Below are positions 1 to 29,892 of a stretch of DNA of 64,000 nt, one piece after another. The notes beneath the pieces are model-generated. The model was not told the origin of the DNA and did no database searches. It worked only from the letters and a program-made list of their open reading frames with translations. The stretch's first letter is position 1; every line of letters starts with the position of its first letter. Made by a program: the position numbers and the translations under genes. Origin of the DNA: an uncultured Propionivibrio sp. (GTDB lineage: Bacteria; Pseudomonadota; Gammaproteobacteria; Burkholderiales; Rhodocyclaceae); contig CALHZD010000095.1 of NCBI GenBank assembly GCA_938040985.1, forward strand, positions 447 to 64,446. Reading direction: 5' to 3'.

Positions 1-447
1 TTGGAACCTGCGTGGAGTGGGTATCTCAGCAGGCAAAAAGAAGATGCCCAGAAACACCGCACAAACAGACTAGAAAACATAAAATTCCCTGAAGTCCCCT
101 AAATACGTGGGGATCAGAGCATCAAAAAACATAAACCGAAAAAGTAGCTATTTTCTTTGCAGAAATGCCGCGTTAGCTTGCCTTGCCTTTTATAGCGCCT
201 TCCTTTGCCAAACTACGGTGTTGCTGTGTTGGCCTTGCCTTGCCGTACGACTCGTACTGCCTGCGGCTCGCCGCCTTGTCTTTGGCAACGTCGAGCCGCT
301 CTTCCTCATACACTGAGACCCTTGTATTTAGGGCTCCTTTAGGCAGATACTCCGGAAACCCGCGTAAACAGGGCGTTTCCCGACACCTTATCGGAGACCC
401 GCGTGGATAGGGCGTTTGCGGGGCGCTTTGATACGGCTGGCATGGTC
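1..447 (+). repeat. Composite intergenic repeat element, copy A (truncated by window edge). Head module 73..137 in forward orientation, stem-loop units at 319..334, 354..380 and 394..426.
   Basis: The head GAAAACATAAAAT...CCCTAAATACGTGGGG...GCATCAAAAAACATAAA matches 13593..13657 and the reverse complements of 9689..9755 and 29786..29852. Downstream units are GGAAAC-CCGCGTAAACAGGGC-GTTTCC and CCGCGTGGATAGGGCGTTTGCGGGG. Confidence 0.7.
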
Positions 448-1416: not shown

Positions 1417-1434
1417 TGTTCAGGATGACGAACG

Positions 1435-5895: not shown

Positions 5896-5897
5896 AC

Positions 5898-7163: not shown

Positions 7164-7226
7164 TTTCACGGAATAGCCGCGTAGCGGTTCCGGAGCGCCG
7201 GAAAATGTGTTGGGAGGGAACGATCC

Positions 7227-7610
7227 ATGAATCTGGAAAAAGTGGTTTTCGGTTTTGTCATCATCCTGGCGTGTACGCTCAATTTTGGCTTTTTCGTCGG
7301 CGGGATCGACAACATTCATGTACATGACGCCGGCCATCTGTTCGGCGCCGTCGTCGTTAACCTGATTGCGCTGATCATGAAATTCGGCGATCGCACGCAC
7401 CTGGGCGCCACGCACCTGGCCACCAGCCTGGTAGCCATGCTGCAATTGCTGGCGGCCTCGCTCGTCTGGATGTGGCACGTCAATATCCAGCATCTGGCAA
7501 TGACCGGCGAAACCATGTCGAGCATTGTCTCGCTGAGCGGCGGCGCGCTGCTCGCCAATGCCATCTCGGTCATTCTTCTGGTCAGCGAAACCCTGTACCA
7601 GTCGCGCTGA
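7227..7610 (+). CDS. Small integral membrane protein (about 4 TM), function unknown
   Basis: 127-aa hydrophobic ORF with typical codon usage, 12 nt upstream of the channel gene and probably co-transcribed with it. Confidence 0.6.
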   Translation: MNLEKVVFGFVIILACTLNFGFFVGGIDNIHVHDAGHLFGAVVVNLIALIMKFGDRTHLGATHLATSLVAMLQLLAASLVWMWHVNIQHLAMTGETMSSIVSLSGGALLANAISVILLVSETLYQSR

Positions 7611-7622
7611 TCCGGCGGGCGC

Positions 7623-9500: not shown

Positions 9501-9539
9501 GCGTCCTGGCGCAGCTCGGCCTGGCGCGCCGCGCCGCTG

Positions 9540-9835
9540 CACCCGCCAGACCACTGCCGGAACCCGCGTAAACAGGGCGTTCCCCGGCACCTCCTCTGAA
9601 ACCCTTATCAATAAAGGGCTGGCAGGCAGGGTGTCCGGAGATGCCCTATCTACACGGTTTGCAGAGAATTGGTCGGGCGCAGTGTTCCAAGTTATGTTTT
9701 GTGATGCTTTGGAGCCCTTGTATTTAGGGCGTTTCAGAGCATTTTATGTTTTTTGGCTTGTTTGCGTAGCTTTTGGAGCACTTTTTTTTGTTTTTTAAGA
9801 TGCCCGTGGATAAAGGCGCTTCGGGCAGCGGTTTT
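9540..9835 (-). repeat. Composite intergenic repeat element, copy B (stem-loop units 9557..9660, head module 9689..9755 in reverse orientation, T-rich tail 9756..9800, extra unit 9793..9806)
   Basis: Same unit types as copy A: CCGGAAC-CCGCGTAAACAGGGC-GTTCCCCGG, CCCTTATCAATAAAGGG, CCCTATCTACACGG. The head is the reverse complement of 73..137. Confidence 0.7.
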
Positions 9836-9852
9836 GCGTCCGGCGCGCTTTG

Positions 9853-11862
9853 TCAGAATGCCATCGGATCAACTTCCAGGTGCCAGCGCAGCCGGGACGG
9901 TGTTTTGATTGCCGCAACAGCCGCCCGCCAGGGCGTGAGAAATGCCTGCAAGACCCGCCGTGAAGGCGATTCGACCAGCAGTTGCGCGCGTTCGAGATTA
10001 GCACGGCGGGCCAATCGCATGGGCACCGGGTCGTAGAGCATGACCTCCGGATACTCTGCGGCCTGCGGCCAGGCGCGCGCCGTGGCGAGAAAAGCGATGG
10101 CGTCGGCCATCTGTGGCGACTCGGCGCGGAGCATGGCCTGGTAGGCGTAGGGCGGAAAGCCCGCCTGCTCGCGCTCCTTGAGCTGCGCCTCGGCAAAGCC
10201 GGCGTAATCGTGGCGCACCAGCGCCGCGTAGAGCGGGTGGTCGGGGTACTGCGTCTGGATAATGACTTCGCCGGGCAGATCGGCGCGGCCGGCGCGGCCG
10301 GCAACCTGCATCAGCTGGGCAAACAGTCGCTCCGCCGCCCGCCAGTCGGCGGCGAACAGGGCGGCATCGGCGCCCAGTACGCCGACCAGCGTCAGCTTTG
10401 GGAAGTCGTGCCCCTTGGCCAGCATCTGCGTGCCGACGAGGATGTCGGCCTCCCCGGCGCGAATGCGGGCGACCAGGGCTTCCCATTGTTTACGGCTTTT
10501 TGCCGCATCGCGGTCAACGCGCAGCACGCGGGCGTAGGGAAAGCGCGCGGCGAGCGCCGCTTCGAGCCGTTGCGTGCCGCGCCCGAAGGGCATGATGTCC
10601 TGATTGCCGCAGGTCGGGCAATGTTTCGGCACGCGGCACTCGAAGCCGCAATGGTGGCAGCGCAGCCGCCGGTCGGCCAGATGCAGCACCAGATTGGCGG
10701 CACAGCGCCGGCAACGCGAAATCCAGCCGCACGCCGGGCAGGACAGCACCGGCGCATAGCCGCGCCGGTTGAGGAAGACGAGGCTTTGCTCGCCGCGCGC
10801 CAGACGCATATTGATCGCCGCCAATAAAGCCTCGCAGCAGCCGTCCTGCAATTTTTCCTGGCGCGTGTCAATGCGCCGCACCGCCGGCAGGCGCGCGCCG
10901 CCGATGGCGCGCGCCTTGAGCGTGAGCAGCCGGTAGCGCGCGCGGGTACGCGGATCGGTCGCATTCGCCCAGCTTTCCAGCGACGGCGTCGCCGAGCCGA
11001 GCACGATCGGGATGTTGCGGGCGCGGGCGCGAAACACGGCCACGTCGCGCGCCGAATAGCGCATGCCCTCCTGCTGCTTGAACGAAGCGTCATGTTCCTC
11101 ATCAACGATGATCAGGCCAAGATCAGGCAGCGGCGTAAATACCGCCAGCCGCGTCCCCAGCACGATGCGCGCCGCGCCCTCGAACGCCGCCCGCCAATGT
11201 TGCGCGCGCGCCGCTTCGCTCAGTTCGCTGTGCAGGCTGACCAGCGGCGCCTCCGGAAAACGCGCGGCGACGCGCTCCTCAAGCTGCGGCGTCAGGTTGA
11301 TTTCCGGCACCAGCAGCAGCGCCTGCCGGCCGGCGGCCAACGCCCGTGCAATCAGGCGCAGATAAACCTCGGTTTTGCCGCTGCCGGTTACGCCATGCAG
11401 TAGGTACGGCTGAAAACCCTCCTCGCCGGCAATGGCCGCCAGCGCGGCTTCCTGTTCATCGGTCAGCGCCGGCGCGGGGCTGGGAGACGGCGTTCGGGCG
11501 GCACGGCGCGGCGTTCGCGCTCGCGGCGGGTCGATGCGGCGCAGCCTGGTCGGCAGGGTCGAGAGCATGACTTCGCCCAGCGGCGCATGGTAGTAGGCGG
11601 CGCAGAACTCGCACAGACGGAACCATTCGGCCGGCAGCGGCGGCAGGTCGCGCAGCACCGCATCGGCCTCTTTCAGCCGCGCCTCGGCCAGTTCGCTGCG
11701 CTCGGGCAGCGCGGTCAGCACGCCGATGCGCATCTGCCGGCCGAAGGGGACGCGCACGCGCAGCCCGATGTCGGCAGCGCCCAGGGACTCGCCCGCCGGC
11801 GCGTAATAATCAAACAGGCCCTCCAGCGGCACGTCAAGAGCAACACGGATAATCTGGCGCAC
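9853..11862 (-). CDS. priA: Primosomal protein N' (replication restart helicase PriA)
   Basis: Walker A GVTGSGKTEVY; DEEH box IIVDEEHD; Cys-rich zinc-binding insert CPACGW..CRRC...CHHCG...CPTCG. Confidence 0.95.
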   Translation of the reverse strand: MRQIIRVALDVPLEGLFDYYAPAGESLGAADIGLRVRVPFGRQMRIGVLTALPERSELAEARLKEADAVLRDLPPLPAEWFRLCEFCAAYYHAPLGEVMLSTLPTRLRRIDPPRARTPRRAARTPSPSPAPALTDEQEAALAAIAGEEGFQPYLLHGVTGSGKTEVYLRLIARALAAGRQALLLVPEINLTPQLEERVAARFPEAPLVSLHSELSEAARAQHWRAAFEGAARIVLGTRLAVFTPLPDLGLIIVDEEHDASFKQQEGMRYSARDVAVFRARARNIPIVLGSATPSLESWANATDPRTRARYRLLTLKARAIGGARLPAVRRIDTRQEKLQDGCCEALLAAINMRLARGEQSLVFLNRRGYAPVLSCPACGWISRCRRCAANLVLHLADRRLRCHHCGFECRVPKHCPTCGNQDIMPFGRGTQRLEAALAARFPYARVLRVDRDAAKSRKQWEALVARIRAGEADILVGTQMLAKGHDFPKLTLVGVLGADAALFAADWRAAERLFAQLMQVAGRAGRADLPGEVIIQTQYPDHPLYAALVRHDYAGFAEAQLKEREQAGFPPYAYQAMLRAESPQMADAIAFLATARAWPQAAEYPEVMLYDPVPMRLARRANLERAQLLVESPSRRVLQAFLTPWRAAVAAIKTPSRLRWHLEVDPMAF

Positions 11863-12128
11863 GCAATAGGCTCTTTAAGACAATCTCAGATCCCCCAAGC
11901 CGTCAAGCGTCGGGCCTGGCGGCGCGGGACGGAATGGGGCGCCCCTGGCGGAATTTCTCGCCGTGCGAGTGATGGAACGGCTGGAACAACGGCAAAGCCG
12001 CGGCGCGGCGGTGTTACCCTCCTTGGCAAGCGGGATAAAGCGGGATGAAATATCATGCGGTTGCGCTACTTTTTTCATTTGCTTTCTACGAAACGCGCCT
12101 AATGCTTTCTCTCGACAAGGTTTTTTCG

Positions 12129-13559: not shown

Positions 13560-14190
13560 CGAAGTTTCCTCTGAATTCCGTAAAGACCGGGCAGAAAACA
13601 TAAAATGCTCTAAAACGCCCTGAATACAAGGGCCCAAGGGCATCAAAAAACATAAACCCCTCAGTTCTTCAAACTGCCCCCTTTAAAAAAGGGGAAGCAA
13701 GTGGAGCTACCCTAGGCTCCTTTATCCACGGGAATTTCAGAGCGCCTGCCCTGAACGCTTTTATTCACGCGGGGTCCGGATCACCCCAAAGACCCCTTGC
13801 CCTTTAGGAGAGGGTAAAAAAGATAAAAAGAGCGCAGGGGCAATATCAAATCCCATCTGAAGTAACAGAAGCCAAGAGAAGCCAAGCCTTCGGCGTGTTG
13901 CCCTCTCTGCCCCTTCGGGGCATCTTCCTCACAGGGGGAGAATTGGAAACGCGGGGACGGAAGCGTAGGTGCATCTCCCAAAAGAGGTGGCCTGAAGCCC
14001 ACGTATTTAGGGCATCTCCGAGGAGGTGATCCGGAACCCTTATAAACAGGGCATCTCAGAGCACCCGGCCGCCAGCCCTTTATTTATAAGGGTTTCAGCG
14101 CCTCCCACTCGGAGCGCCTTTATCCATGCGGGGTTCAGAGAGGTATGCCCGGAAACGCCCAATCCACGCGGGTCTTCGGGGCGCTGTTTT
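13560..14190 (+). repeat. Composite intergenic repeat element, copy C (largest). Head module 13593..13657 forward, ~220-bp unique insert, at least 7 stem-loop units.
   Basis: The head matches copy A. Units include CCTTTATCCACGGG, CCCACGTATTTAGGGC, CCCTTATAAACAGGGC, GCCCTTTATTTATAAGGGT, CCTTTATCCATGCGGGG, CCCAATCCACGCGGG. The 73-aa ORF 13781..14002 inside it looks spurious. Confidence 0.7.
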
Positions 14191-18772: not shown

Positions 18773-19282
18773 TCAATCGTCATCATCGTCGTCGTCATCG
18801 TGATGGCGGCGATGCTGCGGAAAATAGCGATACCCGCGCCAGCGGTAACCGTCGTACATATGGCGCCCGCGCCAATCTTCACGGTGACGGAAATGGGGCG
18901 GAGGCGAAACCTCGTAGCCCATGTAGCGCGGCGCAAACTCACGCTGATACCAGCTATCGCGCACGAAAAACACCGGCTCGCCGCAGGCGCCGTAATCGCG
19001 ACAGTGACGGCGCCAGTGTCTGGGGTGCCGATGCGGCACGCGCATATAGATTGGCGGCCCGACGACGTGCGACGGCGTAACGATGATGGGATCGGCATAA
19101 ATCACCGGGGGCGGCGGGCGGCCGCCGATATCGATGCGCCCGTAAAACCGCGGATCGCCGATGCTGAACGTAACCTCGGCCTGGGCGATGCCGGCCAAGC
19201 CGAGCAGCGCGGCGAACGCGGCGCCGGCAAGAAATCGCACGGTGCGGCGGCGTGAATGTGGTAAATCGTGTTGCTTCAACAT
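18773..19282 (-). CDS. Small secreted His/Arg/Pro/Tyr/Trp-rich protein ending in HH-D8
   Basis: Strong RBS (GGAGA) 7 nt before the ATG at 19282. Signal peptide ...LLGLAGIAQA/EV. Mature part has PPPPV/PPIY/PPPH motifs, 2 Cys, and a C-terminal RRHHDDDDDDDD. Confidence 0.7.
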   Translation of the reverse strand: MLKQHDLPHSRRRTVRFLAGAAFAALLGLAGIAQAEVTFSIGDPRFYGRIDIGGRPPPPVIYADPIIVTPSHVVGPPIYMRVPHRHPRHWRRHCRDYGACGEPVFFVRDSWYQREFAPRYMGYEVSPPPHFRHREDWRGRHMYDGYRWRGYRYFPQHRRHHDDDDDDDD

Positions 19283-19424
19283 GGTGCGTCTCCTTTTTTC
19301 CTTCGGTGCGCAATGCCGTTTTAACAACGCCGGACGCCTGCTTTGGGCCGACAGGGCAAAGGTAAAAGATTGTGTCATGCCGATAGTACATGGAATACAC
19401 GCCGGGCAGGAAAGAATCAAGGGC

Positions 19425-19592
19425 TGCCCGCAAACCCGCGTGGATAGGGCGTTTGCGGGCAGGCACCCTGAAACCCTTATAAATAAAAGGCTGGCGGGCA
19501 GCCCTTCCGAAATGCCCTGTTTACAAGGGCTCCAGAGCATCCCCTTTAGAGGTGCCCTATCTACGCGGGTTGCAGAGGCGCTTGCCGGAACA
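19425..19592. repeat. Intergenic stem-loop repeat array, copy D (no head module)
   Basis: Units: CCCGCAAAC-CCGCGTGGATAGGGC-GTTTGCGGG (9-bp stem), CCCTTATAAATAAAAGG, GCCCTGTTTACAAGGGC, CCCTATCTACGCGGG. Confidence 0.65.
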
Positions 19593-19627: not shown

Positions 19628-19936
19628 TTATAAGGAAGGTTTGCGCCGGAAGGGGAAGTATTCCTGCGGGCGGTCTTCCGGTGACGCCGGGAAAGGCATT
19701 TCCTGGCAAGTGACGCGGTCGACGCGCGCCGGATTCGGACCATGATGGGCCCAGGTAATCAAAACATTGACGCGCGCTTGCTCGCCGCAGAGAAAGGCTT
19801 CGACGCGGCCGTCGCGGCGATTGCGCACCCAGCCGCCGACGTCAAGGCGCAGGGCTTCGGCGCACAGCGCGTTGCGGAAGCCGACGCCCTGCACGCGGCC
19901 TTCAATCAACAGCCGGCAGGCAATGCGGCGCTTCAT
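19628..19936 (-). CDS. Acylphosphatase-like protein with a ~20-aa C-terminal extension
   Basis: Signatures IEGRVQGVGFR and GWVRNRRDGRVEA. The ATG overlaps the TGA of the upstream NuoB-like gene (ATGA at 19933..19936). Confidence 0.85.
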   Translation of the reverse strand: MKRRIACRLLIEGRVQGVGFRNALCAEALRLDVGGWVRNRRDGRVEAFLCGEQARVNVLITWAHHGPNPARVDRVTCQEMPFPASPEDRPQEYFPFRRKPSL

Positions 19937-20466
19937 TGGGCTTCGCGGGCATCCGGTGCGATGGCGGCGAGAATGCCTTGCATCAGTTGCAGCGGCGTCG
20001 GCGGGCAGCCCGGGATAGTGACATCGACGGGAATCACGTTGGCGACGCGCCCGCACGAGGCGTAGCTCTCGCCGAACGGGCCGCCGGTGCAGCCGCAGTC
20101 GCCGACGGCGACGACGAGTTTCGGCGCGGGCGTCGCCTCATAGGCGCGTTTGAGCGCGGTTTCCATGTTTTTGGCGACCGGCCCGGTGACCAGCAGCATG
20201 TCGGCATGGCGCGGGCTGGCGGAAAATTTGATGCCCAGCGCTTCGAGGTTGTAATAGGGATTGCCCAGCGCGTGGATTTCCAGCTCGCAGCCGTTGCAGG
20301 AGCCGGCATCGACGTGGCGGATGACCAGCGCGCGGCCGAGCAGGCGGCGCATTTCCGCGTCCAGCCGTTGCCGGACGGCGGCCAGCGCCTCCTCGTCGGC
20401 GCTGGCTTCGGGCGGCGGCTCGGTGACGATGCCGGTGCGGAGAATTTGTCGGATGAGGGGAAACAT
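19933..20466 (-). CDS. NuoB/HycG/HyfI-like small subunit ([4Fe-4S] cluster cysteines retained)
   Basis: GSCNGCELE, VAVGDCGCTGGPF and IPGCPPTP motifs. Start moved to MFPLIRQ (20466), 2 nt after the stop of the large-subunit gene. Confidence 0.9.
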   Translation of the reverse strand: MFPLIRQILRTGIVTEPPPEASADEEALAAVRQRLDAEMRRLLGRALVIRHVDAGSCNGCELEIHALGNPYYNLEALGIKFSASPRHADMLLVTGPVAKNMETALKRAYEATPAPKLVVAVGDCGCTGGPFGESYASCGRVANVIPVDVTIPGCPPTPLQLMQGILAAIAPDAREAQ

Positions 20467-20468
20467 GG

Positions 20469-22025
20469 CTACAAATCCGGCCCGGAATAAGAAAGGTTGA
20501 ATGATTTGTTGATGAGCGGGAAGTCGGCGACGATGTTGTCGATCACCGCGTGTTCGAGCGCCGGCCAGTTGTGCCAGGAAGGATCGTGGCAATGGCAGCG
20601 GCGGATTTTGCCGTCCGCGCCGGTTTCCAGCGCGACCAGCACGTCACCGCGCCAGCCTTCGACCCAGCCGAAACCGCGCCGGTTGGGCCGGCTGTGCAGC
20701 GCGGCGCGTGTTTCGCCTTCCGGCAGGTGGTCGAGCAGCCCTCGGATCAAGGCCAACGATTCAAATAGTTCGGCAAAGCGCACGGCGGCGCGCGCGGCTA
20801 CGTCGCCGCGTTTTTCGAGCGCCAGCGTCGGCACCATCCGGTCGTACGGCAGGCAGGGGTGGTTGCAGCGCAGGTCCCACGCCTGCCCGCTGGCGCGGCC
20901 GGCCAGGCCGATGAGGCCGAGGCGCTGCGCCAGATCGGGCGTGACGACACCGGTGCTCAGAAAGCGATCCTGGAGGCCGGCGTGTTCGTCGTAGATGGTC
21001 TTGAGACGGCGCACCTCTTTTTCGACGGCGTCACACTGACTGTGTAAAGCGCCGATGCCGGCCGCGTCGACATCGACGGTCACGCCGCCGGGAACAATAC
21101 GGTCCTTCATGAAACGGTGCCCGAACAGGCGGGCGTTGAGGCGCACCCAGTCTTCCTTCAGGCGCATGAACTGCATCAGCCCGAAGGCAAGCGCTACGTC
21201 GTTGCCCAGGTAGCCGAGATCGCTCAGGTGATTGGCGATGCGCTCGCGTTCGAGCAGCAGGGCGCGCAGCCAGGCGGCGCGCGGCGGCGGTGCGACCTCG
21301 GCGATGGCTTCGGCGGCCTGGCTGTACGCCCAGGCGTAAGCGACCGTGGAGTCGCCGGAGATCCGCCCGGCCAGCGTTGCGCCGGCGGCCAGCGGCATGC
21401 CGGTAAACAGCCGGTCGATTCCCTTGTGCTTCCAGCCCATCCGCTCTTCCAGGCGCAGCGTGCGCTCGCCCATCGTTGAAAAACGGAAGTGGCCCGGTTC
21501 GATGATGCCGGCGTGAATCGGGCCGACGGCAATTTCATGGACGCCCTCGCCCGCGACGCGAACGAAGGGGTAATCTTCATTAGCCGCCGGAAACTGGCGA
21601 CCCGGCGTGTCGCGGCGCAGCGGGAAGTAGTCGGCCGGCCAGTTGGCGTGGCGTAGCCAGGGGCGCGTATCCTCGCCGTCCTCAATGCGCAGGCCGAGCA
21701 GGTCGCAGGCGGCGCGTTGCAGGCGGTTGGCGCTGTAGAACAGCGAGGCCAGATCGGGGAAGGCAGGGTTGTCTGCCGACAGCGGCAGGCTCAGGCACGC
21801 CAGCCCTTCGGCCAGATCGAAGGCGACATGCAGGGCAAAGCCGGAGCCCGCATCCGCAGCGCGGTCGCGCTCGTCGCTGCCCCACAGGCTGACCAGCCGC
21901 CGGCCGGCGCGATGGACGGCAACGCTGAAGTCCAGCAACTGCGGGGCACTGACGCTCGCCGCGTAAGCGGCCATCGTCTGGCCGGCGACGGGCGAAAAAT
22001 CAATGGGCTGGTCGAGGAATCGCAT
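20469..22025 (-). CDS. HycE/HyfG-like large subunit (NuoC-NuoD fusion type) lacking all four [NiFe]-ligand cysteines
   Basis: Colinear with HycE-type proteins: VGPIHAGIIEPGHFRF, ERIANHL, C-terminal ...PLINKSF. It reads RISGDST where hydrogenases have RxCGxC, and NLSYSGPDL-stop where they have DPCxxCxxR/H. Confidence 0.9.
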   Translation of the reverse strand: MRFLDQPIDFSPVAGQTMAAYAASVSAPQLLDFSVAVHRAGRRLVSLWGSDERDRAADAGSGFALHVAFDLAEGLACLSLPLSADNPAFPDLASLFYSANRLQRAACDLLGLRIEDGEDTRPWLRHANWPADYFPLRRDTPGRQFPAANEDYPFVRVAGEGVHEIAVGPIHAGIIEPGHFRFSTMGERTLRLEERMGWKHKGIDRLFTGMPLAAGATLAGRISGDSTVAYAWAYSQAAEAIAEVAPPPRAAWLRALLLERERIANHLSDLGYLGNDVALAFGLMQFMRLKEDWVRLNARLFGHRFMKDRIVPGGVTVDVDAAGIGALHSQCDAVEKEVRRLKTIYDEHAGLQDRFLSTGVVTPDLAQRLGLIGLAGRASGQAWDLRCNHPCLPYDRMVPTLALEKRGDVAARAAVRFAELFESLALIRGLLDHLPEGETRAALHSRPNRRGFGWVEGWRGDVLVALETGADGKIRRCHCHDPSWHNWPALEHAVIDNIVADFPLINKSFNLSYSGPDL

Positions 22026-22029
22026 GAGG

Positions 22030-23484
22030 CTACCCGATGAAAGCGACGGCCTGGCGGAACCAATCGGCCAGATAGGGCGGAATCCACACGCCGAGCATGA
22101 GCACCAGGCCAAGATGCAGGAACACCGGCAATAGCGCCGGATTGTGCGCCAGCGGCTTGACTGTCGGCTCGCCGAAAACCATGCCCTGCACCTTATGGAA
22201 CATGGCGGCGAAGGCAACGCTCAGTGCAATCAGCAGAATCGGCGCCGCCCAGGGGTGCTGCCGGATGGCGATGGTCAGGATCATGAATTCGCTGGCAAAT
22301 ACGCCGAAGGGCGGCATGCCGAGAATGGCCAGCGTACCGAGCATGAGTCCCCAGCCAATGGTCGGCGAGCGTTTGAGCAGACCGCGGATGTCTTCGATGG
22401 TTTGCGTGCCGGCCATTTGCGCGGCATGACCGACGGCGAAGAAAATGGCGGACTTGGTTAACGAATGCACGGTCATGTGCAGCAGGCCGGCGAAGCTGGC
22501 GACCGGCCCGCCCATCCCGAAAGCAAACGTGATCAGCCCCATGTGCTCGATCGACGAAAAGCCGAACAGGCGCTTGATGTCTCTCTGGCGGGAGAGATAA
22601 AAAGCCGGCACGACGACGGTCAGCAAACCGAAGGCCATCATGAGGTTCTCGGCAAAGCGGGTGCCCAGCGCCCCGTCAACGAGCACCTTGCCGCGGATGA
22701 TGGCGTAGAGCGCCACATTGAGCAGCAGGCCGGAAAGTACGGCGGAAACGGGCGTCGGCCCTTCGGCGTGGGCGTCCGGCAGCCAATTGTGCAGCGGCGC
22801 CAGACCGGTCTTGGTGCCGTAACCGACGAGCAAAAAGACAAAAGCCAGCGACAGCGTCGTCGGCTCGAGCAAGGTGCGCACGCCGTTCAGATGCGTCCAT
22901 AGCAGCGCATGGCCTTCGCTGCCGAGCATGCGTTCTGCGGCAAAGTAGATGAGGATGGTGCCGAACAGCGCCTGGGCGATGCCGACGCCGCAGAGGATGA
23001 AGTATTTCCACGCCGCCTCCAGACCCGCCGGCGTGCGGTAAAGGGCGACGAGCAGCACGGTGGTCAGCGTTGCCGCCTCCATGGCGACCCAGAGGATGCC
23101 GAGGTTGTTGGTCGACAGCGCCGTCAGCATGGTGCACATGAACATCTGGAACATGCTGTGATAAAGCCGCAATCGCCCGGCCGAAAGGCGGCCGTGATCG
23201 TGCTCGATGCGCATGTAGGGGCGCGAGAACAGGGCGGTGGTGAAACCGACCAGCGCTGTCAGCGCAATCAGGAAAACATTGAGCGGGTCGACGAAAAACT
23301 GCATGTCGTATGCCCACATCGAACCGTCGGTAATAATGCGCCGGGTCAGAAAAGCGGCAGCGACCAGGGTCAGCAGGCTGCATACGGCATTGATCGCGCC
23401 CGCTGCGCGCCAGTGGCCGACCAGCGCCAGCAATATCGCGGCGAAGAGCGGAATGCCGAGAACGCAGCCCAGTTCGACCGTCAT
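22030..23484 (-). CDS. NuoN/NuoM/HyfF-like antiporter-type membrane subunit
   Basis: 484-aa polytopic protein with Mrp/NuoLMN-type conserved stretches (WLPDAHAEGPTPVSAVLSG, SSIEHMG). Confidence 0.9.
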   Translation of the reverse strand: MTVELGCVLGIPLFAAILLALVGHWRAAGAINAVCSLLTLVAAAFLTRRIITDGSMWAYDMQFFVDPLNVFLIALTALVGFTTALFSRPYMRIEHDHGRLSAGRLRLYHSMFQMFMCTMLTALSTNNLGILWVAMEAATLTTVLLVALYRTPAGLEAAWKYFILCGVGIAQALFGTILIYFAAERMLGSEGHALLWTHLNGVRTLLEPTTLSLAFVFLLVGYGTKTGLAPLHNWLPDAHAEGPTPVSAVLSGLLLNVALYAIIRGKVLVDGALGTRFAENLMMAFGLLTVVVPAFYLSRQRDIKRLFGFSSIEHMGLITFAFGMGGPVASFAGLLHMTVHSLTKSAIFFAVGHAAQMAGTQTIEDIRGLLKRSPTIGWGLMLGTLAILGMPPFGVFASEFMILTIAIRQHPWAAPILLIALSVAFAAMFHKVQGMVFGEPTVKPLAHNPALLPVFLHLGLVLMLGVWIPPYLADWFRQAVAFIG

Positions 23485-24170
23485 TTTTCGCGCGCCTTTT
23501 GTGCTTCTTCCATGCGGCCGATGTCCAGACTGTCAAACTGCTCGCGGATCTGGAAGAAGAAGATGGCCAGGATGACCATGCCGACCATGACATCGAGCGC
23601 AATGCCCAGCTCGACGACCATCGGCATGCCGTAGGTGGTGCTCGTGGCGGCGAAAAACAGGCCATTTTCCATGGCCAGAAAGGCGATCACCTGCGGTACG
23701 GCCTTGCTGCGCGTGATCATCATCAGAAAAGAAAGCAACACGCAGGCCAGCGCGATGCCGACGGTCGAGCGCATGATCGTGCCGGAGAGCTGCGAGATCG
23801 GCTGCGCCACGTTGAAGGAGATGATGACGAGCAGGATGCCGACCAGCATTGTCGTCGGGATGTTGAGCAGCGTCTCGACATCCCACTTGACCGACAGCCG
23901 GCGGATCAGACGGTGCAGAATCCAGGGCAGGGCAAGTACCTTGAGGAGCAAGGTCAGCGCCGCCGACCAGTAAAGGTGGCGCTGGTGCGTCGTCACGGCG
24001 ACGATCAGCGTCGAGCAGAACAGGGCGAATCCCTGCATCATGAACAGGTTGATCAGTGTCAGGATGCGCCGCTGCGAGAGCATGGCGAAGCCGAGCAGCA
24101 GCAGGATCGCGGCGCACAGGTTGATGAGCGGCAAGGCTTCCTGGATGGGTAGCGAGGGGAGCGTCATCAT
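23481..24170 (-). CDS. HyfE-like (NuoK-related) membrane subunit
   Basis: 229-aa membrane protein with LAMENG and ELGIALD motifs as in E. coli HyfE (from memory). 4-nt overlaps with both neighbours. Confidence 0.8.
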   Translation of the reverse strand: MMTLPSLPIQEALPLINLCAAILLLLGFAMLSQRRILTLINLFMMQGFALFCSTLIVAVTTHQRHLYWSAALTLLLKVLALPWILHRLIRRLSVKWDVETLLNIPTTMLVGILLVIISFNVAQPISQLSGTIMRSTVGIALACVLLSFLMMITRSKAVPQVIAFLAMENGLFFAATSTTYGMPMVVELGIALDVMVGMVILAIFFFQIREQFDSLDIGRMEEAQKAREK

Positions 24171-25114
24171 GCCCTCAGCAGCAGGTGAACAAGCATGGCC
24201 AGCACGGCCAGCATGAAGGCGGCGCCGAGAAATTCCGGCGTGCGGAAAACGCGCATTTTGGCCGAAAGCGTTTCGATCAGCGCCAGGCAGAAGCCGCTGA
24301 CGGCCAGCTTGGCGACCAGGATCAGCGCGGCGCGGCCTAGTGACAGCGGATCGGAGGCGTCAGGAATGCCAAAGGGAAAGAACAGCGCGATACCGATGCA
24401 CGAGTAGGCGAAAAGTTTGAGGCTGGACGCCCATTCGATCAGCGCCAGATGGCGGCCGGAATATTCGAGAATCATCGCTTCGTGAATCATCGTCAGTTCT
24501 AAGTGCGTCGTCGGGTTATCCACCGGCACGCGCGCATTTTCGGCCAGTGAGACCATGACGAAGGCGACGCCCGCAAAAGCCAGGCTTGGGTAGATGGCGA
24601 CTTCGCGGTTGCCCAGGCTATCGACGATCGTTGACAGCGAGGTCGATTGCGAAATCAGTGAGGCGGTAAAAAACCCCATCAGCAGCCCCGGTTCGGCGAG
24701 GAAGCCGATCAGCATTTCACGGCGCGCGCCGAGCGAGCCGAACGCCGTGCCGACATCCATGCCCGCCAGCGCGATAAACACGCGCGCCAGTGCAAACAGG
24801 CCGACCAGGGCGATGGCATCGGCGGCCGGCGACAGAATCAGATCGGTAGATAGGGTGGGGACGATGGCCGAAGCTAAGGCCATGCAGGCAAAAATCACAT
24901 AGGGGGCGGTGCGGAACAGGGGCGAAGCGTTGTCGGCCAGCACCACTTCCTTGCGGAAAAGTTTGTGCAGCGTGTAATACGGTTGCAGCAAAGAGGGCGC
25001 CGAACGGTTCTGCAACCAAGCGCGGCACTGGTTGACCCAGCCGACGAGCATGGGCGCCAGGATAATGGCCGCGGTCAATGCGAGCATCTGGGCGAAAAAT
25101 GGGTAAAACCTCAT
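24167..25114 (-). CDS. NuoH/HycD/HyfC-like membrane subunit
   Basis: 315-aa polytopic protein of the NADH dehydrogenase subunit 1 / HycD family type (E-rich loop ...HLELTMIHEAMILEYSG). Confidence 0.85.
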   Translation of the reverse strand: MRFYPFFAQMLALTAAIILAPMLVGWVNQCRAWLQNRSAPSLLQPYYTLHKLFRKEVVLADNASPLFRTAPYVIFACMALASAIVPTLSTDLILSPAADAIALVGLFALARVFIALAGMDVGTAFGSLGARREMLIGFLAEPGLLMGFFTASLISQSTSLSTIVDSLGNREVAIYPSLAFAGVAFVMVSLAENARVPVDNPTTHLELTMIHEAMILEYSGRHLALIEWASSLKLFAYSCIGIALFFPFGIPDASDPLSLGRAALILVAKLAVSGFCLALIETLSAKMRVFRTPEFLGAAFMLAVLAMLVHLLLRA

Positions 25115-25118
25115 CGCC

Positions 25119-27146
25119 TCATCCCCGCGTCAGCACCAGCAACGCGATCAGCGTCACAAAACTGTAAAGCAGATAAATGGCGATCCGCCCCTGCTGAAGC
25201 AGCGCCGCCAGGCGCGTGCCGTATTCGACGAAGCGAGCGATCGGCAGATACAGCCAGTACCAGGTCGGATCTTCGACAACACTGCGGTAGACCGGCGCTT
25301 TGTCGAAAGGCGAAGGGTGCTTGCGCGTGCGGCGCAGAAAGACATCGAAAATGCGCCGCACAGGCTGACCGAAGCCCTCGGCCGTATCCTGCATACGCGG
25401 CGTTTGCAGCGGAAAGCCGCAATCCCAGGCCGGCGCGCGCCGGTGCCCGGGCATTCCCTGTTGGCGGCGCTGAAAACGGCGCACGGCGAAATAGACGATC
25501 GGCGTCAATAGCGCCAGACTGACGAAAAAGGCCAGCGCGCTGTAACTGGCGCGATCGGCATTGATCGGCGTGAGCAGCCACCAACTGTTGCTGGCCGCAT
25601 CGCGCAGGCTGACGCCGACCAGCAGGCGCGTGACCGGGTCGAGCAAGGCGACGACCGCATTCGGCAGCAGGCCGAGCAGAACGCAGCCGAGCGCCAGCCA
25701 GAGCAGGCCAAAGCGTTCGAGCTGACCGGCGTCGCGCGCCTCGGACAGTTTTTCTTCACGCGGCTGGCCGAGAAAAATGACGCCGAAAAACTTGACCATC
25801 GCAAAGCCGGCCAGCGCGGCCACCAGCGCCACGGCCGCTGCGACGACCGGCAAAAGCATATTCAGATAACCGTGCGGCAGGCCGGAAGTAAACAGAAAGC
25901 TTTGCAGCAACAGCCATTCCGAAACAAAGCCGTTGAGCGGCGGCAGGCCAGCGGCTGCGAGCGTGCCGATGAGCGCCAGCCAGGCCACCCAGGGCATACG
26001 GTGGATGAGGCCGCCCAGCTTGCCGAGATTGCGCTCGTGCGTAGCATGCAGCACGGAGCCGGTCGACAGGAACAGCAGCCCCTTGAAAAAAGCGTGGTTG
26101 AGACAGTGATAAAGCGTGGCGGTCAGCGCCAGCGCCGACAGATAGGGCAGCTGGAAGGTGACGAAAATCAGTCCGAGGCCGGCGCCGACCAGGATCAGGC
26201 CGATGTTTTCGATCGAAGAATAGGCGAGCAGGCGCTTCATGTCGCTCTGGATCGCCGAATAGATGACGCCGAACAGCGCCGTCAGCAGCCCGGCGACCAG
26301 CATCAGCGCACCCCACCACCAGGTTTCCGCATCCAGCAGATCGAAGCTGACGCGCAGGATGCCGTACACAGCGGTTTTCAGCATGATGCCGCTCATCATT
26401 GCCGACACCGGCGAGGGCGCGGCCGGGTGCGCCTCCGGCAGCCAGATATGCAGGGGCAGCATGCCGGCCTTGGCGCCAAAACCGAAAAGTGCCAGCAGAA
26501 AAGCGCCTGCCGCCCAAGCGCCGCTGCGCGGAAATTCGCGCATGGCTTCGAACGTATAGTCGCCGGCGCCACCGGCCATGACGCCAAAAGACAGCAAAAT
26601 GCCGATGGCGCCGATGTGGGCGATCAGCAGATAAAGATAAGCGGCGCGTCGAATCTCGGCGTGGCGATGCTCGAACGCAACGAGAAAAAACGAGGACAGC
26701 GCCATCGATTCCCAGGCGACCATGAAGGCGTAACCATCATCTGCCAGTAAAACGCAAGCCATGCTCGCCAGAAAGACGTGATAAAGAAAACAGTAGAGGC
26801 CGGGCGGGGCGCTGTCGTCGCGGTGCATGTAGCCGGCGGCATAGAGGGAAATGCCTGCCGCCGCTGCGCCGAGCAGGAACAGAAAAAACGCCGAGAGCGC
26901 GTCCAGCCGCAGATGGAACGGCTGACCGGGAAGACCCAGCGGCAGGATGAGCGTTTGCGGTGAGGCCGCCATGGCCAGCAACGCCTGCACGGCGACCAGC
27001 GCGGCGATACCCGCACCGAGCGGGAACAGGAAACGGCTGATTAGGGTAAAGCGACCGGGCTGCACGAGGCCGATACAACCAATCAGCAGCCAGCCGGATG
27101 CGGCCAGCAGGATACTGTCGATTCCGTTGGAAAATAGCGCGCTCAT
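25119..27146 (-). CDS. NuoL/HycC/HyfB-like antiporter-type membrane subunit
   Basis: 675-aa polytopic protein with WLPEAHPAAPSPVSAMMSG and SSIENIG motifs typical of NuoL/HyfB. Confidence 0.9.
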   Translation of the reverse strand: MSALFSNGIDSILLAASGWLLIGCIGLVQPGRFTLISRFLFPLGAGIAALVAVQALLAMAASPQTLILPLGLPGQPFHLRLDALSAFFLFLLGAAAAGISLYAAGYMHRDDSAPPGLYCFLYHVFLASMACVLLADDGYAFMVAWESMALSSFFLVAFEHRHAEIRRAAYLYLLIAHIGAIGILLSFGVMAGGAGDYTFEAMREFPRSGAWAAGAFLLALFGFGAKAGMLPLHIWLPEAHPAAPSPVSAMMSGIMLKTAVYGILRVSFDLLDAETWWWGALMLVAGLLTALFGVIYSAIQSDMKRLLAYSSIENIGLILVGAGLGLIFVTFQLPYLSALALTATLYHCLNHAFFKGLLFLSTGSVLHATHERNLGKLGGLIHRMPWVAWLALIGTLAAAGLPPLNGFVSEWLLLQSFLFTSGLPHGYLNMLLPVVAAAVALVAALAGFAMVKFFGVIFLGQPREEKLSEARDAGQLERFGLLWLALGCVLLGLLPNAVVALLDPVTRLLVGVSLRDAASNSWWLLTPINADRASYSALAFFVSLALLTPIVYFAVRRFQRRQQGMPGHRRAPAWDCGFPLQTPRMQDTAEGFGQPVRRIFDVFLRRTRKHPSPFDKAPVYRSVVEDPTWYWLYLPIARFVEYGTRLAALLQQGRIAIYLLYSFVTLIALLVLTRG

Positions 27147-27400
27147 TGTGGCGGCTCCGTCGGTGGCGCTGGCATTTCGAGCATTTCACGCAATAGTCTG
27201 GCAATGGCGTAGACCATCAGTACCAGGCCGCCGCCCAGGGCGATGAAAGCTTCCGCCTTCGTCACCGGAAAGTCGCGAAAGAACAGGGGCACGCCGCGTA
27301 TCAGCCAGAGCGCGCCTGAAGAAAACAGCGCAATGCCCAAAACATCGCAGGCAATATAGGCCAGCACTTTCGGTGTCAGGCGCAGCCGCATGGTTTTCAT
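27143..27400 (-). CDS. Small two-TM membrane protein at the head of the hyf-like operon (possibly DUF1418/YbjC-like)
   Basis: 85 aa with two hydrophobic helices. Its stop overlaps the start of the NuoL-like gene (ATGA). It starts 43 nt after the metG stop. Confidence 0.6.
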   Translation of the reverse strand: MKTMRLRLTPKVLAYIACDVLGIALFSSGALWLIRGVPLFFRDFPVTKAEAFIALGGGLVLMVYAIARLLREMLEMPAPPTEPPQ

Positions 27401-27443
27401 GCGGGTCGCCTCTGCCTCATCGCGCGCATTGCCGTCCTCCGGA

Positions 27444-29606
27444 TTACTTGACCTTCATGCCGGCCTGTGCGCCTGCATCAGGCGACAGCAGGAAGATTCC
27501 CGGCGTTTTGCCGTCCGCGTCGGAGGCAGCGAGGATCATCCCTTCGGACAAGCCAAACTTCATTTTGCGTGGCGCCAGATTGGCGACCATGACCGTATGG
27601 CGGCCGATCAGTGCGGCCGGGTCGTAAGCGGACTTGATGCCGGCGAATACCTGCCGGGGCCTGTCTTCACCAATATCGAGCAAGAGACGGAGCAGCTTTT
27701 CCGCCCCTTCGACATGGCCGGCATCGACAATACGCGCCACGCGCAGGTCAACCTTCATGAAATCGTCGATGCTGATTGTTCCCTTGCCCGCGTTGTCTGC
27801 CGGTCCGGTTTTTCGGGAAGAAGACCCCTCTGGCGCGGCGGAGGCAGGGCGTGCGGCGGACTTGCCGGAGCGCTGCCCGTCGGCGTCGTTGTGCGTTTTT
27901 GCTTTCGCTCCGGCATCTGCCGGAGCGGCGTTCAGCGAGGCCTTGTTGGCTTCGATCAGGGCGGTAATCTGTTTCGGGTCGATGCGTGTCATCAGATGGC
28001 TGTAGGTGCCGATGACGTGACCGGCCGGCAACGGCGTCTGTGCGTCGTCCCAGGCAAGCGGGGGCACGCCGAGAAAAGCCTCGACCGCTTCGGCGACTTT
28101 GGGCAGGACGGGCTTGAGGTATACGGTCAGCAGGCGGAACGCCTCGATGGCCTGCGAACAGGCGGCATGCAAAGCTTCCTGCTGTCCTTCCTGTTTGGCG
28201 AGTTCCCAGGGTTTCCGGTCGTTGACGAAGACATTGGCGGTATCGGCCAGGGCCATGACTTCACGCAGGGCGCGCCCGAATTCGCGCGCTTCGTAGGCGG
28301 CAGCAATGTTGCTGGCGGCATCGCGCAAAGGTTGCAGCCACGCCGCGTCGGTCGCAGCCAGACGGCCGCCGAAGCGCTTGCCGATGAAGCCGGCGCAGCG
28401 GCTGGCGATATTGACATATTTGCCGATCAGGTCGGCATTGACGCGGGCCACAAAATCTTCGAGGTTAAGGTCGATGTCTTCCATTGTCGCGTTGAGCTTG
28501 GCGGCGTAGTAATAGCGCAGCCATTCGGGGTTCAGTCCCTGCTTCAAATAGCTTTCGGCGGTGATGAACGTGCCGCGCGACTTGCTCATCTTGGCGCCGT
28601 CGACGGTCAGAAAGCCGTGCGCGAAGACGCCGCTCGGTGTACGGAAGCCGGCGTGCGCCAGCTGGGCCGGCCAGAATAGTGCGTGGAAATAGAGGATGTC
28701 CTTGCCGATAAAGTGATACAGCTCGGTTTGCGTATCTGCTTGCCAGTAGTCGTTGAAGTCGATGCCGTTTTTTTCGCACAGGTTTTTGAACGACCCCATG
28801 TAGCCGATTGGGGCGTCGAGCCAGACATAAAAGTATTTGCCGGGCGCCTCGGGGATTTCAAAGCCGAAGTACGGCGCATCGCGCGAAATGTCCCAGTCAC
28901 TGAGCCGGTTTTCGCCTTCTGCGCCCAGCCATTCCTGCATCTTGTTGGCGGCTTCCGGTTGCAAATGGCCGCTTTCGTGCGTCCAGCGGCGCAGGAAATC
29001 CTGGCAGCGCGGGTCGGAAAGCTGGAAGAAATAATGCTCGGACTGGCGCAGCTCCGGCGTGGCGCCGGAAACAGCCGAGTAGGGGTTTTTCAGTTCATTC
29101 GGCGTGTAGGCAGCGCCGCACGACTCGCAGTTGTCGCCATATTGGTCGGGGGTGCCGCATTTCGGGCATTCGCCTTTAATGAAGCGGTCGGGCAGAAACA
29201 TCTGCCGGGTCGGGTCGTAATACTGTTCAATCGTGCGCGTTGCGATCAGGCCGTTTTCCCGCAGACGGGCGTAGATCAGGTTGGCGTAGTGGCGGGTTTC
29301 CGGCGAATGCGTCGTGTAGAAATTGTCAAAACCGACGTGGAAGCCGGAAAAATCGCGGAAATGCTCATCATGCACGCGCGCGATCAGCGCCTCCGGCGTG
29401 ATGCCTTCCTGCTCGGCGCGCAGCATGACCGGCGTGCCGTGCGTATCGTCGGCGCAGACGTACCAGCACGCCGCTACCCGGTCTTTCGCCTGCATTTTCT
29501 GGAAGCGCACCCAGATATCGGTCTGGATATATTCGACAAGATGGCCGAGATGGATCGCGCCGTTGGCGTAAGGCAGGGCGGAAGTGACGAGAATTTTGCG
29601 GGACAT
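27444..29606 (-). CDS. metG: Methionine--tRNA ligase MetG (with C-terminal tRNA-binding domain)
   Basis: HIGH-type NGAIHLGH; KMSKS (GAKMSKSRG); zinc knuckle CPKCG...CESCG; C-terminal [10 protein letters not shown]...GIKSAY tRNA-binding domain. Start moved to [13 protein letters not shown]. Confidence 0.97.
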
Positions 29607-29699: not shown

Positions 29700-29892
29700 A
29701 AAATCTTTGTAAACAAGGTGTTTCAGGGTGGGGCGCGGAGATGTTCCGGTCACGTGGGTTTCAGTGGGTCATTGGGCCATGATTTTCCATTTTATGTTTT
29801 TTGATGCCCTGAAGCCCTTTATTTACGGCGACTTCCGGGCATTTTATGTTTTCTGGCCTGCTTGCACGGGGTTCCGGCGCACTTTTTTCAGC
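29700..29892 (-). repeat. Composite intergenic repeat element, copy E (stem-loop units 29705..29765, head module 29786..29852 in reverse orientation, T-rich tail)
   Basis: CATTTTATGTTTTTTGATGCCCTGAAGCCCTTTATTTACGGCG...GGGCATTTTATGTTTTCTGGCC is the reverse complement of the head in copies A and C. The tail ...GCGCACTTTTTTC parallels copy B ...GGAGCACTTTTTTTT. Confidence 0.7.

Follow-up and report, generated by a model that had tools for sequence, protein, structure and literature searches.

How can a complex I-like machine be driven if the subunit that passes electrons to its core is missing? This question is raised by a 64,000-nucleotide stretch of DNA from an uncultured Propionivibrio sp. 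(contig CALHZD010000095.1; hereafter the window, meaning the whole stretch that was analyzed), which carries on its minus strand, at positions 19628-27400, a compact operon encoding six complex I-like subunits and no NuoI-type subunit. Members of the complex I superfamily are thought to share one coupling mechanism. In every solved member, a NuoI-type two-cluster subunit stands between the electron donor and the cluster at the N2 position, and the N-terminal helix of this HycF/NuoI-type subunit is said to be present in all of them (PMC9474812). The Ehr/Hyq family, to which the operon belongs, is very widespread and breaks this rule. The family itself, its lost [NiFe] ligands and its six-gene layout have already been published, and the window alone opens no new question; a survey of related loci sharpens the existing problem, however, in that no partner gene is conserved, the published idea about three cysteines of the Hyq large subunit does not carry over to most of the family, and a ferredoxin-fused sister family exists.

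A compact operon for a six-subunit complex

Open reading frame (ORF) calls together with Pfam and NCBIfam searches place eight close-packed genes in this region, in the order small protein with two transmembrane (2-TM) segments, ehrA-B-C-D-L-S and acylphosphatase:

27143..27400, minus strand: small 2-TM protein, 85 amino acids (aa), two hydrophobic segments; stop codon and ehrA start codon overlap (ATGA)
25119..27146, minus strand: EhrA (= HyqB/HyfB-like), 675 aa, antiporter-like subunit of the NuoL/HycC type; Pfam Proton_antipo_M and Proton_antipo_N
24167..25114, minus strand: EhrB (= HyqC/HyfC/HycD-like), 315 aa, NuoH type; Pfam NADHdh, E=8e-37, full length
23481..24170, minus strand: EhrC (= HyqE/HyfE-like), 229 aa, membrane subunit with ~7 predicted helices
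22030..23484, minus strand: EhrD (= HyqF/HyfF-like), 484 aa, second antiporter-like subunit, NuoM/N type
20469..22025, minus strand: EhrL (= HyqG), 518 aa, fused NuoC and NuoD/HycE-like; Pfam Complex1_30kDa and Complex1_49kDa
19933..20466, minus strand: EhrS (= HyqI), 177 aa, NuoB/HycG-like; Pfam Oxidored_q6
19628..19936, minus strand: acylphosphatase, 102 aa; Pfam PF00708, E=2.5e-20; its start overlaps the ehrS stop (ATGA)

The start of EhrL was taken at MRFLDQ. Read from the sequence, the junctions across all eight genes are either overlaps of 4 nt (ATGA) or spacings of 2-4 nt (2 nt between ehrL and ehrS), and all eight reading frames are intact and translationally coupled. A preliminary description of the locus had given the subunit order as L-H-K(HyfE)-N-CD-B in complex I terms, flanked by the small protein and the acylphosphatase, with overlaps of 4 nt or gaps of a few nucleotides throughout; the domain searches bear out the former and the junctions the latter. 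Compared with an 81%-identical relative (locus L081), the ratio of nonsynonymous to synonymous substitution rates (dN/dS) is 0.09-0.33 over all eight genes and 0.09-0.26 for the core six, against 0.13 for the adjacent housekeeping gene metG. The arrangement goes far past what chance would give: all eight genes are under purifying selection, and by these sequence measures the operon reads as a functional, strongly constrained machine.

The operon type has already been described under three names, Ehr, Hyq and hyf-like hyfBCEFGI, and the window locus is a further member. Ehr was reportedly described by Coppi in 2005 from Geobacter sulfurreducens (ehrABCDLS, GSU0739-0745), and the Ehr class as drawn by Marreiros in 2013 is said to be heterogeneous, taking in Mbx-like complexes with a NuoI homologue. 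On the basis of domain and equivalog matches, 36-55% identity to the hyq operon of Rhizobium leguminosarum, and a gene order that is invariant in 86 of 86 loci, the operon almost certainly encodes an Ehr/Hyq-type complex. Such a complex is related, as a six-subunit "core" version, to the Hyf-type group 4 membrane hydrogenases and to the quinone/proton modules of complex I.

Metal and cofactor sites in EhrL and EhrS

The large subunit EhrL was aligned with HycE of Escherichia coli formate hydrogenlyase-1 (FHL-1; 7z0s_E), HycE residue numbers being counted from the alignment with D529 as the anchor. The HycE motif RVCGIC is replaced by RISGDS and DPCYSC by NLSYSG, with C241/C244 corresponding to EhrL S223/S226 and C531/C534 to S512/G515. 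All four [NiFe] cysteines are replaced, and the [NiFe] site, as judged from this alignment, is gone. The same cysteine-less pattern is found in most full-length representatives and in the 85 aligned EhrL homologues, among which no cysteine is conserved family-wide; a minority of the representatives obtained by 50% clustering retains ERxCGxC and FELCYxC, and these are true hydrogenases.

The former metal pocket is lined instead by Ser223, Asp225, Ser/Thr226, Asn510, Ser512 and Tyr513, and its surroundings are strongly conserved. Gly224 and Asp225 are present in 85/85 sequences, as are D501, F502, P503, N506, K507, S508, Y513 and D517 of the C-terminal motif DFP.xNKSFNxSYxGxD, and the beta1-beta2 loop VGPxHAGxIEPGHFRF varies hardly or not at all. 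R459, also invariant, aligns with the arginine of the PRGD motif of HycE, which on our own reading we take to be the canopy arginine Arg478. The description with which this reading was compared is that of PMC9474812.

The small subunit EhrS, which carries no fused ferredoxin domain, has the motifs CNGC, GDCGC and GCPP, aligning with the cluster ligands of MbhJ (6cfw_J, E=1e-36) and HycG (7z0s_G, E=3e-34). Cys57, Cys60, Cys124 and Cys154 are present in all 76 homologues. These data support the prediction that the four cysteines form one proximal [4Fe-4S] site at the N2 position, which would be the only cofactor of the complex. The preliminary description had proposed the same on motif grounds, and the conservation of the EhrS cysteines together with the loss of the [NiFe] cysteines from EhrL upholds it.

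The missing NuoI-type subunit is a family property

For this genome, the search for a NuoI-like gene and the survey of neighboring genes cover the window. A six-frame scan of all 64 kb for CxxCxx(x)CxxxC gave a single match, lying in a stop-to-stop frame of 94 codons (3499-3780), and the motif occurs in no called gene of the window. Nor did the window contain hyp, formate dehydrogenase (FDH), nif, NuoEFG or HyfA/HycB-like genes, in keeping with the preliminary description, which had reported the operon to be without formate dehydrogenase, HyfA and maturation genes; the rest is housekeeping (czcD-like, rsmB, ntrYX, priA, hemE, ubiE, apbC, sodC, dcd, thyA, ilvD, glyA, ribD and others).

The absence was then followed across the family. 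EhrL homologues number more than 8000 among the matches listed, from Beta-, Gamma- and Alphaproteobacteria, Acidobacteria, Nitrospirota and others; Propionivibrio, Accumulibacter and other Rhodocyclaceae supply the closest among these matches, at 70-94% identity. The survey set comprised 80 genome loci with EhrL 41-76% identical to that of the window, drawn from Beta- and Gammaproteobacteria, Acidobacteria, Nitrospirota, Mariprofundus and others, and six loci from assemblies or plasmids, 86 in total. The gene order A-B-C-D-L-S is unchanged in 86/86 loci, and the six-gene set is complete in 64 of them. The space between ehrL and ehrS, measured in 81 loci, has a median length of 8 nt and never exceeds 296 nt, which is too small for a NuoI/HyfH-like gene of ~500 nt. 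An ORF with a ferredoxin motif lies within 10 kb in only three of 80 loci. The missing NuoI/HycF-like subunit, asserted for the window by the preliminary description, is therefore a property of the family.

The flanking genes are equally uninformative as to a partner. After clustering, no flanking family occurs in more than 12 loci, and a Pfam scan of 125 immediate neighbors returned 155 families, the commonest in at most six neighbors; metG, a spermidine-synthase-like protein, a SulP/STAS transporter, ribbon-helix-helix (RHH) regulators and AhpC are the most frequent. The preliminary description had stated that a ferredoxin-type subunit or partner dehydrogenase consistently adjacent in orthologous loci would speak against it; no conserved neighbor of either kind was found across the 86 loci.

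The same order and near-invariant motifs recur in Beta-, Gamma- and Alphaproteobacteria, Acidobacteria, Nitrospirota and Mariprofundus. The six proteins of the window are 57-73% identical to those of Paraburkholderia and Variovorax operons, and RefSeq names the orthologous Paraburkholderia, Variovorax and Rhizobium products hydrogenase 4 subunit B/F, NuoH, NuoC and NuoB-family. Orthologous operons lie on replicons of cultivable, tractable bacteria (Cupriavidus metallidurans CH34, C. necator N-1, Paraburkholderia, Variovorax, Rhizobium), and it is in such hosts that the remaining matter of value, the function of the Ehr/Hyq family, can be approached.

Two loci show unusual layouts. In the Nitrospirota metagenome-assembled genome (MAG) L061, Ehr-type clusters stand in tandem, at 2-4359 (C-D-L-S) and then at 4420-12086 (A-B-C-D-L-S), both lacking the [NiFe] cysteines and a ferredoxin fusion, with EhrL 36% and 46% identical to that of the window. 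In the Nitrospirae MAG L062, at ~8250-9820, a 456-codon gene separates ehrD from ehrL, the sole large interruption in the 86 loci.

A ferredoxin-fused sister cluster

In three loci, the minimal cluster is adjoined by a paralogous six-gene Ehr-like cluster (L087 1099-8383, on plasmid 3 of Variovorax sp. PBL-E5; L011 3-2857; L032 2-3539). It shares the six-gene layout of the window operon, its proteins are 26-40% identical to those of the window, and its large subunit is likewise without [NiFe] cysteines (VGDSS, FDLSYCGNDL). It differs in its NuoB-like small subunit, which is fused to an N-terminal 2x[4Fe-4S] ferredoxin domain that the EhrS of the window lacks. The fused small-subunit family is itself widespread, with at least ~8000 members among the matches listed. 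The fusion implies that iron-sulfur relays feed the N2-position cluster in the sister family, which argues that electron transfer was probably part of the ancestral job of these complexes.

The membrane arm

Homology places EhrL and EhrS on the NuoH-like EhrB, with EhrC, EhrA and EhrD making up the membrane arm. EhrA scores 863 bits against NCBIfam NF005086, "hydrogenase 4 subunit B" (cutoff 667), and its closest solved relative is HycC (7z0s_C, E=3e-65), the alignment spanning residues 45-618 and including the C-terminal region; the charged motifs for ion translocation are visible by eye, short of a residue-by-residue alignment. EhrD scores 832 bits against NF005045, "hydrogenase 4 subunit F" (cutoff 543), and retains the TM5 Glu, TM7 Lys and TM12 Glu in the segments AMEAAT, GTKTGLAPLHNWLPDAH and FASEF, aligned to MbsH and MbhH. 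EhrB is 48-80% identical among the 80 loci and, by analogy with its relatives, should join the EhrL/EhrS peripheral pair to the membrane arm.

EhrC has a weak match, scoring 83 bits against the NCBIfam HyfE model NF008556, below the cutoff of 136. Its Glu168-Asn169 is invariant and Glu187 nearly so (conserved residues taken from alignment A3). Searches with its sequence and with a 27-sequence profile alignment gave no PDB homologue, the matches being chance-level ones to signal peptidase II, and a single-sequence AlphaFold model was poor (predicted local distance difference test, pLDDT, 56). We infer a resemblance to NuoK/MrpC.

Relation to known systems

As described for Ehr, the large subunit is related to group 4 hydrogenases without having their [NiFe] CxxC motifs, the small subunit resembles NuoB, and the membrane subunits A-B-C-D are NuoL-, NuoH-, HyfE- and NuoN-like, in the order ehrA-B-C-D-L-S. 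All of these features are found at the window locus, which adds the 2-TM protein and the acylphosphatase; the likeness to Geobacter Ehr is one to published descriptions, as opposed to a sequence comparison with GSU0739-0745. The label EhrA-B-C-D-L-S, given in the preliminary description, fits the subunit names used for Geobacter (NuoL-like EhrA, HyfE-like EhrC and others; PMC7894505). Ehr has been described as of unknown function (PMC6349859, PMC10284858, PMC10432482, PMC6728331), and the role of the "hyf-like hyfBCEFGI" operon of Nitrospira has been called unclear (PMC5596200).

The Hyq "endo-hydrogenase" of Azorhizobium caulinodans, hyqRBCEFGI, has been called a core six-subunit version of complex I (PMC2650096, PMC3357923), with orthologues in R. 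leguminosarum, Bradyrhizobium and Xanthobacter (Ng 2009, PMC2650096; Sprecher 2012, PMC3357923). HyqG lacks both CxxC motifs, HyqI has four conserved cysteines, and there is no counterpart of NuoI (PMC3357923). The window has the same six structural genes in the same order, and neither system has NuoI, HyfA or HyfD. Identity to the plasmid-borne R. leguminosarum operon (L086), counted as an orthologous hyq by the Azorhizobium authors (PMC2650096), is 45% for A, 53% for B, 36% for C, 55% for D, 45% for L and 53% for S. The systems differ upstream, where hyq is headed by the regulator hyqR and the window has metG and the small 2-TM ORF; HyqR-like XRE genes were found only in L065, L066, L075 and L086. 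They differ also in setting, Hyq belonging to the nif regulon and the window containing no nif genes, and in that an H2-related phenotype as seen for Hyq was never shown for the clade of the window. Finally, three completely conserved cysteines have been reported for HyqG (A. caulinodans Cys258, Cys491 and Cys497; PMC3357923). In the window these positions are Gly274, Ile505 and Leu511, and cysteine stands there in 20, 19 and 5, respectively, of 85 EhrL sequences.

With E. coli hydrogenase-4/formate hydrogenlyase-2 (FHL-2; hyfABCDEFGHIJ), the window has the order B-C-E-F-G-I in common; it is without HyfA (4x FeS), HyfD, HyfH (2x[4Fe-4S]) and the [NiFe] ligands, and the window holds no genes for FDH or maturation. 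More generally, the group 4 [NiFe]-hydrogenases (Hyf/FHL-2, Hyc, Ech, Mbh) have the L1/L2 CxxC motifs and a NuoI-type subunit (HyfH, HycF, EchF, MbhN), neither of which is found here. FHL-1 (Hyc, 7z0s; PMC9474812) holds the closest solved relatives of EhrL (HycE, E=5e-52) and EhrA (HycC), its HycG coming just behind MbhJ of 6cfw as a match to EhrS, and it shares the beta1-beta2 loop and the PRGD arginine with EhrL; it has the [NiFe] site, HycF, HycB, FdhF and one antiporter-like subunit, whereas the window has two antiporter-like subunits. Complex I (Nuo/Nqo) is represented by homologues of NuoB, C, D, H, L and M/N, with the N2-position ligands kept; NuoA, E, F, G and I have no homologue in the locus, NuoJ/K have at most the HyfE-like EhrC as a counterpart, and the three antiporter-like subunits NuoL, M and N compare with two in the operon. 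Compared with the Mrp antiporter (MrpA-G, no peripheral arm), the window has only the MrpA/D-like domains, in EhrA and EhrD, and in addition the NuoH-like subunit and the NuoB/CD-like pair.

A possible redox-coupled translocator and the alternatives

The preliminary description had asked which donor and acceptor, if any, drive the two antiporter-like subunits. The question already has a published and contested answer via Hyq (PMC2650096, PMC3357923), given that the six-gene architecture is the same. We tentatively favor, at somewhat short of an even chance, a redox-coupled proton or cation translocator with a single cluster, in which a soluble partner docks at the NuoI position. A soluble carrier, be it a ferredoxin- or flavodoxin-type protein or an iron-sulfur protein encoded elsewhere, would dock directly on the surface that NuoI/HycF covers in the solved relatives and would pass electrons one at a time via the EhrS cluster to an acceptor in the pocket formed by L, S and B, most plausibly a membrane quinone. 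Changes of charge in the pocket would be relayed through EhrB and EhrC to EhrD and EhrA, and the complex might conserve energy in the forward direction or, in reverse, draw on the proton gradient to generate a low-potential reductant. The redox role is suggested by the cluster cysteines found in 76/76 EhrS homologues and by the ferredoxin-fused sister family, a working pocket by the invariant G224/D225, C-terminal residues, loop and R459, and the integrity of the pump by the TM5 Glu, TM7 Lys and TM12 Glu of EhrD, the near-full-length alignment of EhrA with HycC and the low dN/dS of the core genes. A donor from outside the complex fits the lack of Fer4, FDH and NuoEFG genes in the window and among the conserved neighbors.

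Several points weigh against a redox-coupled translocator of this kind. Tyr87 of Nqo4, which with His38 ligates the quinone head group, aligns with the invariant Gly224 of EhrL (R84-M-D-Y87 versus R221-I-S-G224). The equivalent of Nqo4 His38 is ambiguous, the loop being longer in EhrL; His171 is invariant and His179 is present in 81/85 sequences. The Asp preceding the first C-terminal cysteine of HycE, which by our own count we take to be the "canopy" Asp529, is replaced by Asn in 84/85 EhrL sequences. The canopy Asp529 has been described as strictly conserved in hydrogenases and complex I (PMC9474812). With Tyr87 replaced by Gly and the canopy Asp by Asn, a canonical quinone site in EhrL is only putative. 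The EhrS cluster could be purely structural, and its solvent accessibility is presumed. No donor or acceptor has been identified for the complex, here or in the literature, and the sole genetics on the six-gene layout, the hyq deletion in A. caulinodans, points to H2 uptake or evolution and not to ferredoxin chemistry. Expression of the window operon is likewise presumed: none of the runs searched for expression contains this genome, 32% of the sampled words occurring in the best DNA run and 6-7% in those marked "RNA?", and a few contig pieces of 150-220 nt on ehrL and ehrC come from runs of uncertain type.

A broader proposition, which we consider doubtful, is that the minimal Ehr/Hyq complexes are the only members of the complex I superfamily without a NuoI-type relay, being either single-cluster machines or machines in which a non-redox cation or proton pocket gates two antiporter modules. 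In the former version, a ferredoxin or flavodoxin would plug directly onto the N2-position cluster, as in, for example, a quinol:ferredoxin reductase driven by the proton gradient and providing low-potential electrons in aerobes and lithoautotrophs. In the latter, the former hydrogenase pocket, lined by Ser, Asp, Asn and Tyr, would serve as a cation or proton site. Either version, if true, would constitute a new coupling mode for the superfamily.

An alternative that we regard as unlikely is a redox-independent or redox-gated Mrp-like antiporter in which EhrA, EhrD, EhrB and EhrC exchange ions, EhrL and EhrS act as a cytoplasmic cap, the oxygen-rich former metal pocket is a cation or proton relay, and the cluster is structural or a sensor. 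Such a device would explain why no electron input or output partner is encoded nearby in any of the 86 loci, and an oxygen-rich pocket without the Nqo4 Tyr87 equivalent suits hard cations or water better than quinone or H2; the antiporter-like subunits keep their charged residues, and genes for transporters or stress regulation (SulP/STAS, universal stress proteins, ArsR) are frequent among the neighbors. It does not readily account for the retention of four cluster cysteines in every EhrS sequence across phyla, and the two additional iron-sulfur clusters of the sister subfamily are hard to explain without electron transfer. True Mrp antiporters, moreover, lack a peripheral arm, and the locus contains no MrpB, E, F or G.

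Somewhat less likely again is that the operon encodes an incomplete module, completed by iron-sulfur or dehydrogenase subunits encoded elsewhere, whether a NuoI/HyfH-like protein, a formate dehydrogenase ("FDH-Ehr") or the ferredoxin-fused cluster. An FDH-Ehr pairing was put forward for Margulisbacteria and Saganbacteria (PMC6349859), and Geobacter grown on formate has Ehr subunits in greater abundance (PMC7894505); the fused cluster lies beside the minimal cluster on the Variovorax plasmid as well as in L011 and L032, and the genome was examined over 64 kb only. Yet no such gene is found among the conserved neighbors in the 86 loci, though all other subunits are translationally coupled, and the adjoining paralogous cluster has its own full set of six genes and looks like an independent complex.

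The published Hyq model, a cytoplasm-facing H2:quinone oxidoreductase without a canonical [NiFe] site as claimed for A. caulinodans, appears improbable for the window operon. It draws strength from the shared six-gene architecture and the identity to the R. leguminosarum proteins, from the altered H2 evolution and diazotrophic growth of the hyq deletion, and from the high H2 output that persists in a nifK mutant (PMC2650096, PMC3357923). The published evidence is in vivo only, however, from deletion of the whole operon including the regulator, and the original authors themselves called a Ni,Fe site "uncertain, if not unlikely" (PMC3357923). All four [NiFe] cysteines are absent from EhrL, the three HyqG cysteines are replaced in the window and in most of the family, and neither hyp or other maturation genes nor nif genes are found in the window. 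A separate idea, that electron supply to nitrogenase underlies the Hyq phenotypes, loses weight in view of the high H2 output published for the nifK mutant.

That the operon is a nonfunctional remnant of a Hyf-type hydrogenase operon, which the missing catalytic metal ligands and the absence of hyfA, hyfD and hyfH might suggest, is excluded for practical purposes by the conservation data, namely intact coupled frames, core dN/dS values like that of metG, and gene order and motifs conserved across phyla.

Accessory genes, flanks and regulation

The two outer genes of the block behave differently from the core. The small 2-TM protein has no Pfam or NCBIfam match; it is found in the close relatives L081 (59% identity) and L084 (44%), doubtfully in L082 (23%) and not in L083, and phmmer detected it in none of the 80 more distant loci. 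Its dN/dS relative to L081 is 0.26. The acylphosphatase, with a dN/dS of 0.33 in the same comparison, has intact motifs (GRVQGVGFR and GWVRNRRDGRVE) and stands directly downstream of ehrS in a Rhodocyclaceae clade (L042, L081-L084); elsewhere among the 80 loci it occurs only at a distance, in L013 and L048. Both are real genes and lineage-specific accessories, mainly of Rhodocyclaceae, as opposed to core subunits, and they would be clade-specific passengers or modulators. In Rhodocyclaceae, the acylphosphatase might link the complex to acyl-phosphate metabolism. A role as a core part or as a HypF relic was rejected, because outside the Rhodocyclaceae clade the gene is found in only two of 80 loci and at a distance.

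Two further features flank the operon:

27444..29606, minus strand: metG (methionyl-tRNA synthetase), directly upstream of the small 2-TM gene, 43-nt gap
19427..19577, no strand assigned: cluster of repeats resembling repetitive extragenic palindromic (REP) elements, just downstream of the acylphosphatase gene; repeat families D1, D3, D5 and I1-I9

The synteny of metG with ehr is found in Rhodocyclaceae and other Betaproteobacteria, and metG is possibly co-transcribed with the operon. No promoter- or terminator-like sites were detected in the metG-ehr gap, in a scan whose total did not exceed that for shuffled sequence, and scans of 15-32 kb for Rfam families and tRNAs gave no matches. The interval separating metG from the small 2-TM ORF contains a 10-codon upstream ORF (uORF; MRAMRQRRPA; 27400-27429, minus strand) with a strong GGAGGA ribosome-binding site, its stop overlapping the start of the small 2-TM ORF. 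It was considered as a regulatory element and dropped, as it is not conserved in L081, L082 and L084.

In other genomes, the upstream regulators vary by lineage, being HyqR-like XRE, CopG/RHH_9 or ArsR. A SulP permease with a STAS domain lies directly upstream of ehrA on the same strand in L005, L007, L014, L068 and L073, which represent Thiobacillus, Rhodocyclaceae, another betaproteobacterium and two Methylococcales-type genomes; this adjacency might point to a connection with the transport of anions or bicarbonate. A spermidine-synthase-like protein ("fused MFS/spermidine synthase", MFS denoting the major facilitator superfamily) is encoded near the operon in L085 (3041-3874) and L087 (10714-11448 and 19651-20409), and also near L003, L004, L018, L021, L041, L049 and L067, mostly in Burkholderiales, with one acidobacterial and one Gallionella locus. 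Universal stress proteins are encoded close by in the Paraburkholderia and Variovorax plasmid loci. No paper tying the Burkholderia low-oxygen (lxa) locus to hydrogenase-4-like genes was found in a literature search.

A second REP-like cluster at 29783-29888, upstream of metG, brackets the block from metG to the acylphosphatase together with the cluster at 19427-19577. REP-like intergenic repeats built of imperfect palindromic units occur in the window at 38-143, 357-425, 9561-9765, 13561-13658, 13992-14180, 19427-19577 and 29783-29888, and in metagenome run X1 a depth spike and numerous joints coincide with the cluster at 19427-19577. Downstream of the operon, the ORF at 18773-19540 (minus strand), whose upstream part overlaps REP-like repeats, encodes a probable secreted small protein with a signal-peptide-like N-terminus, rich in Arg, His, Tyr and Pro and ending with eight Asp.

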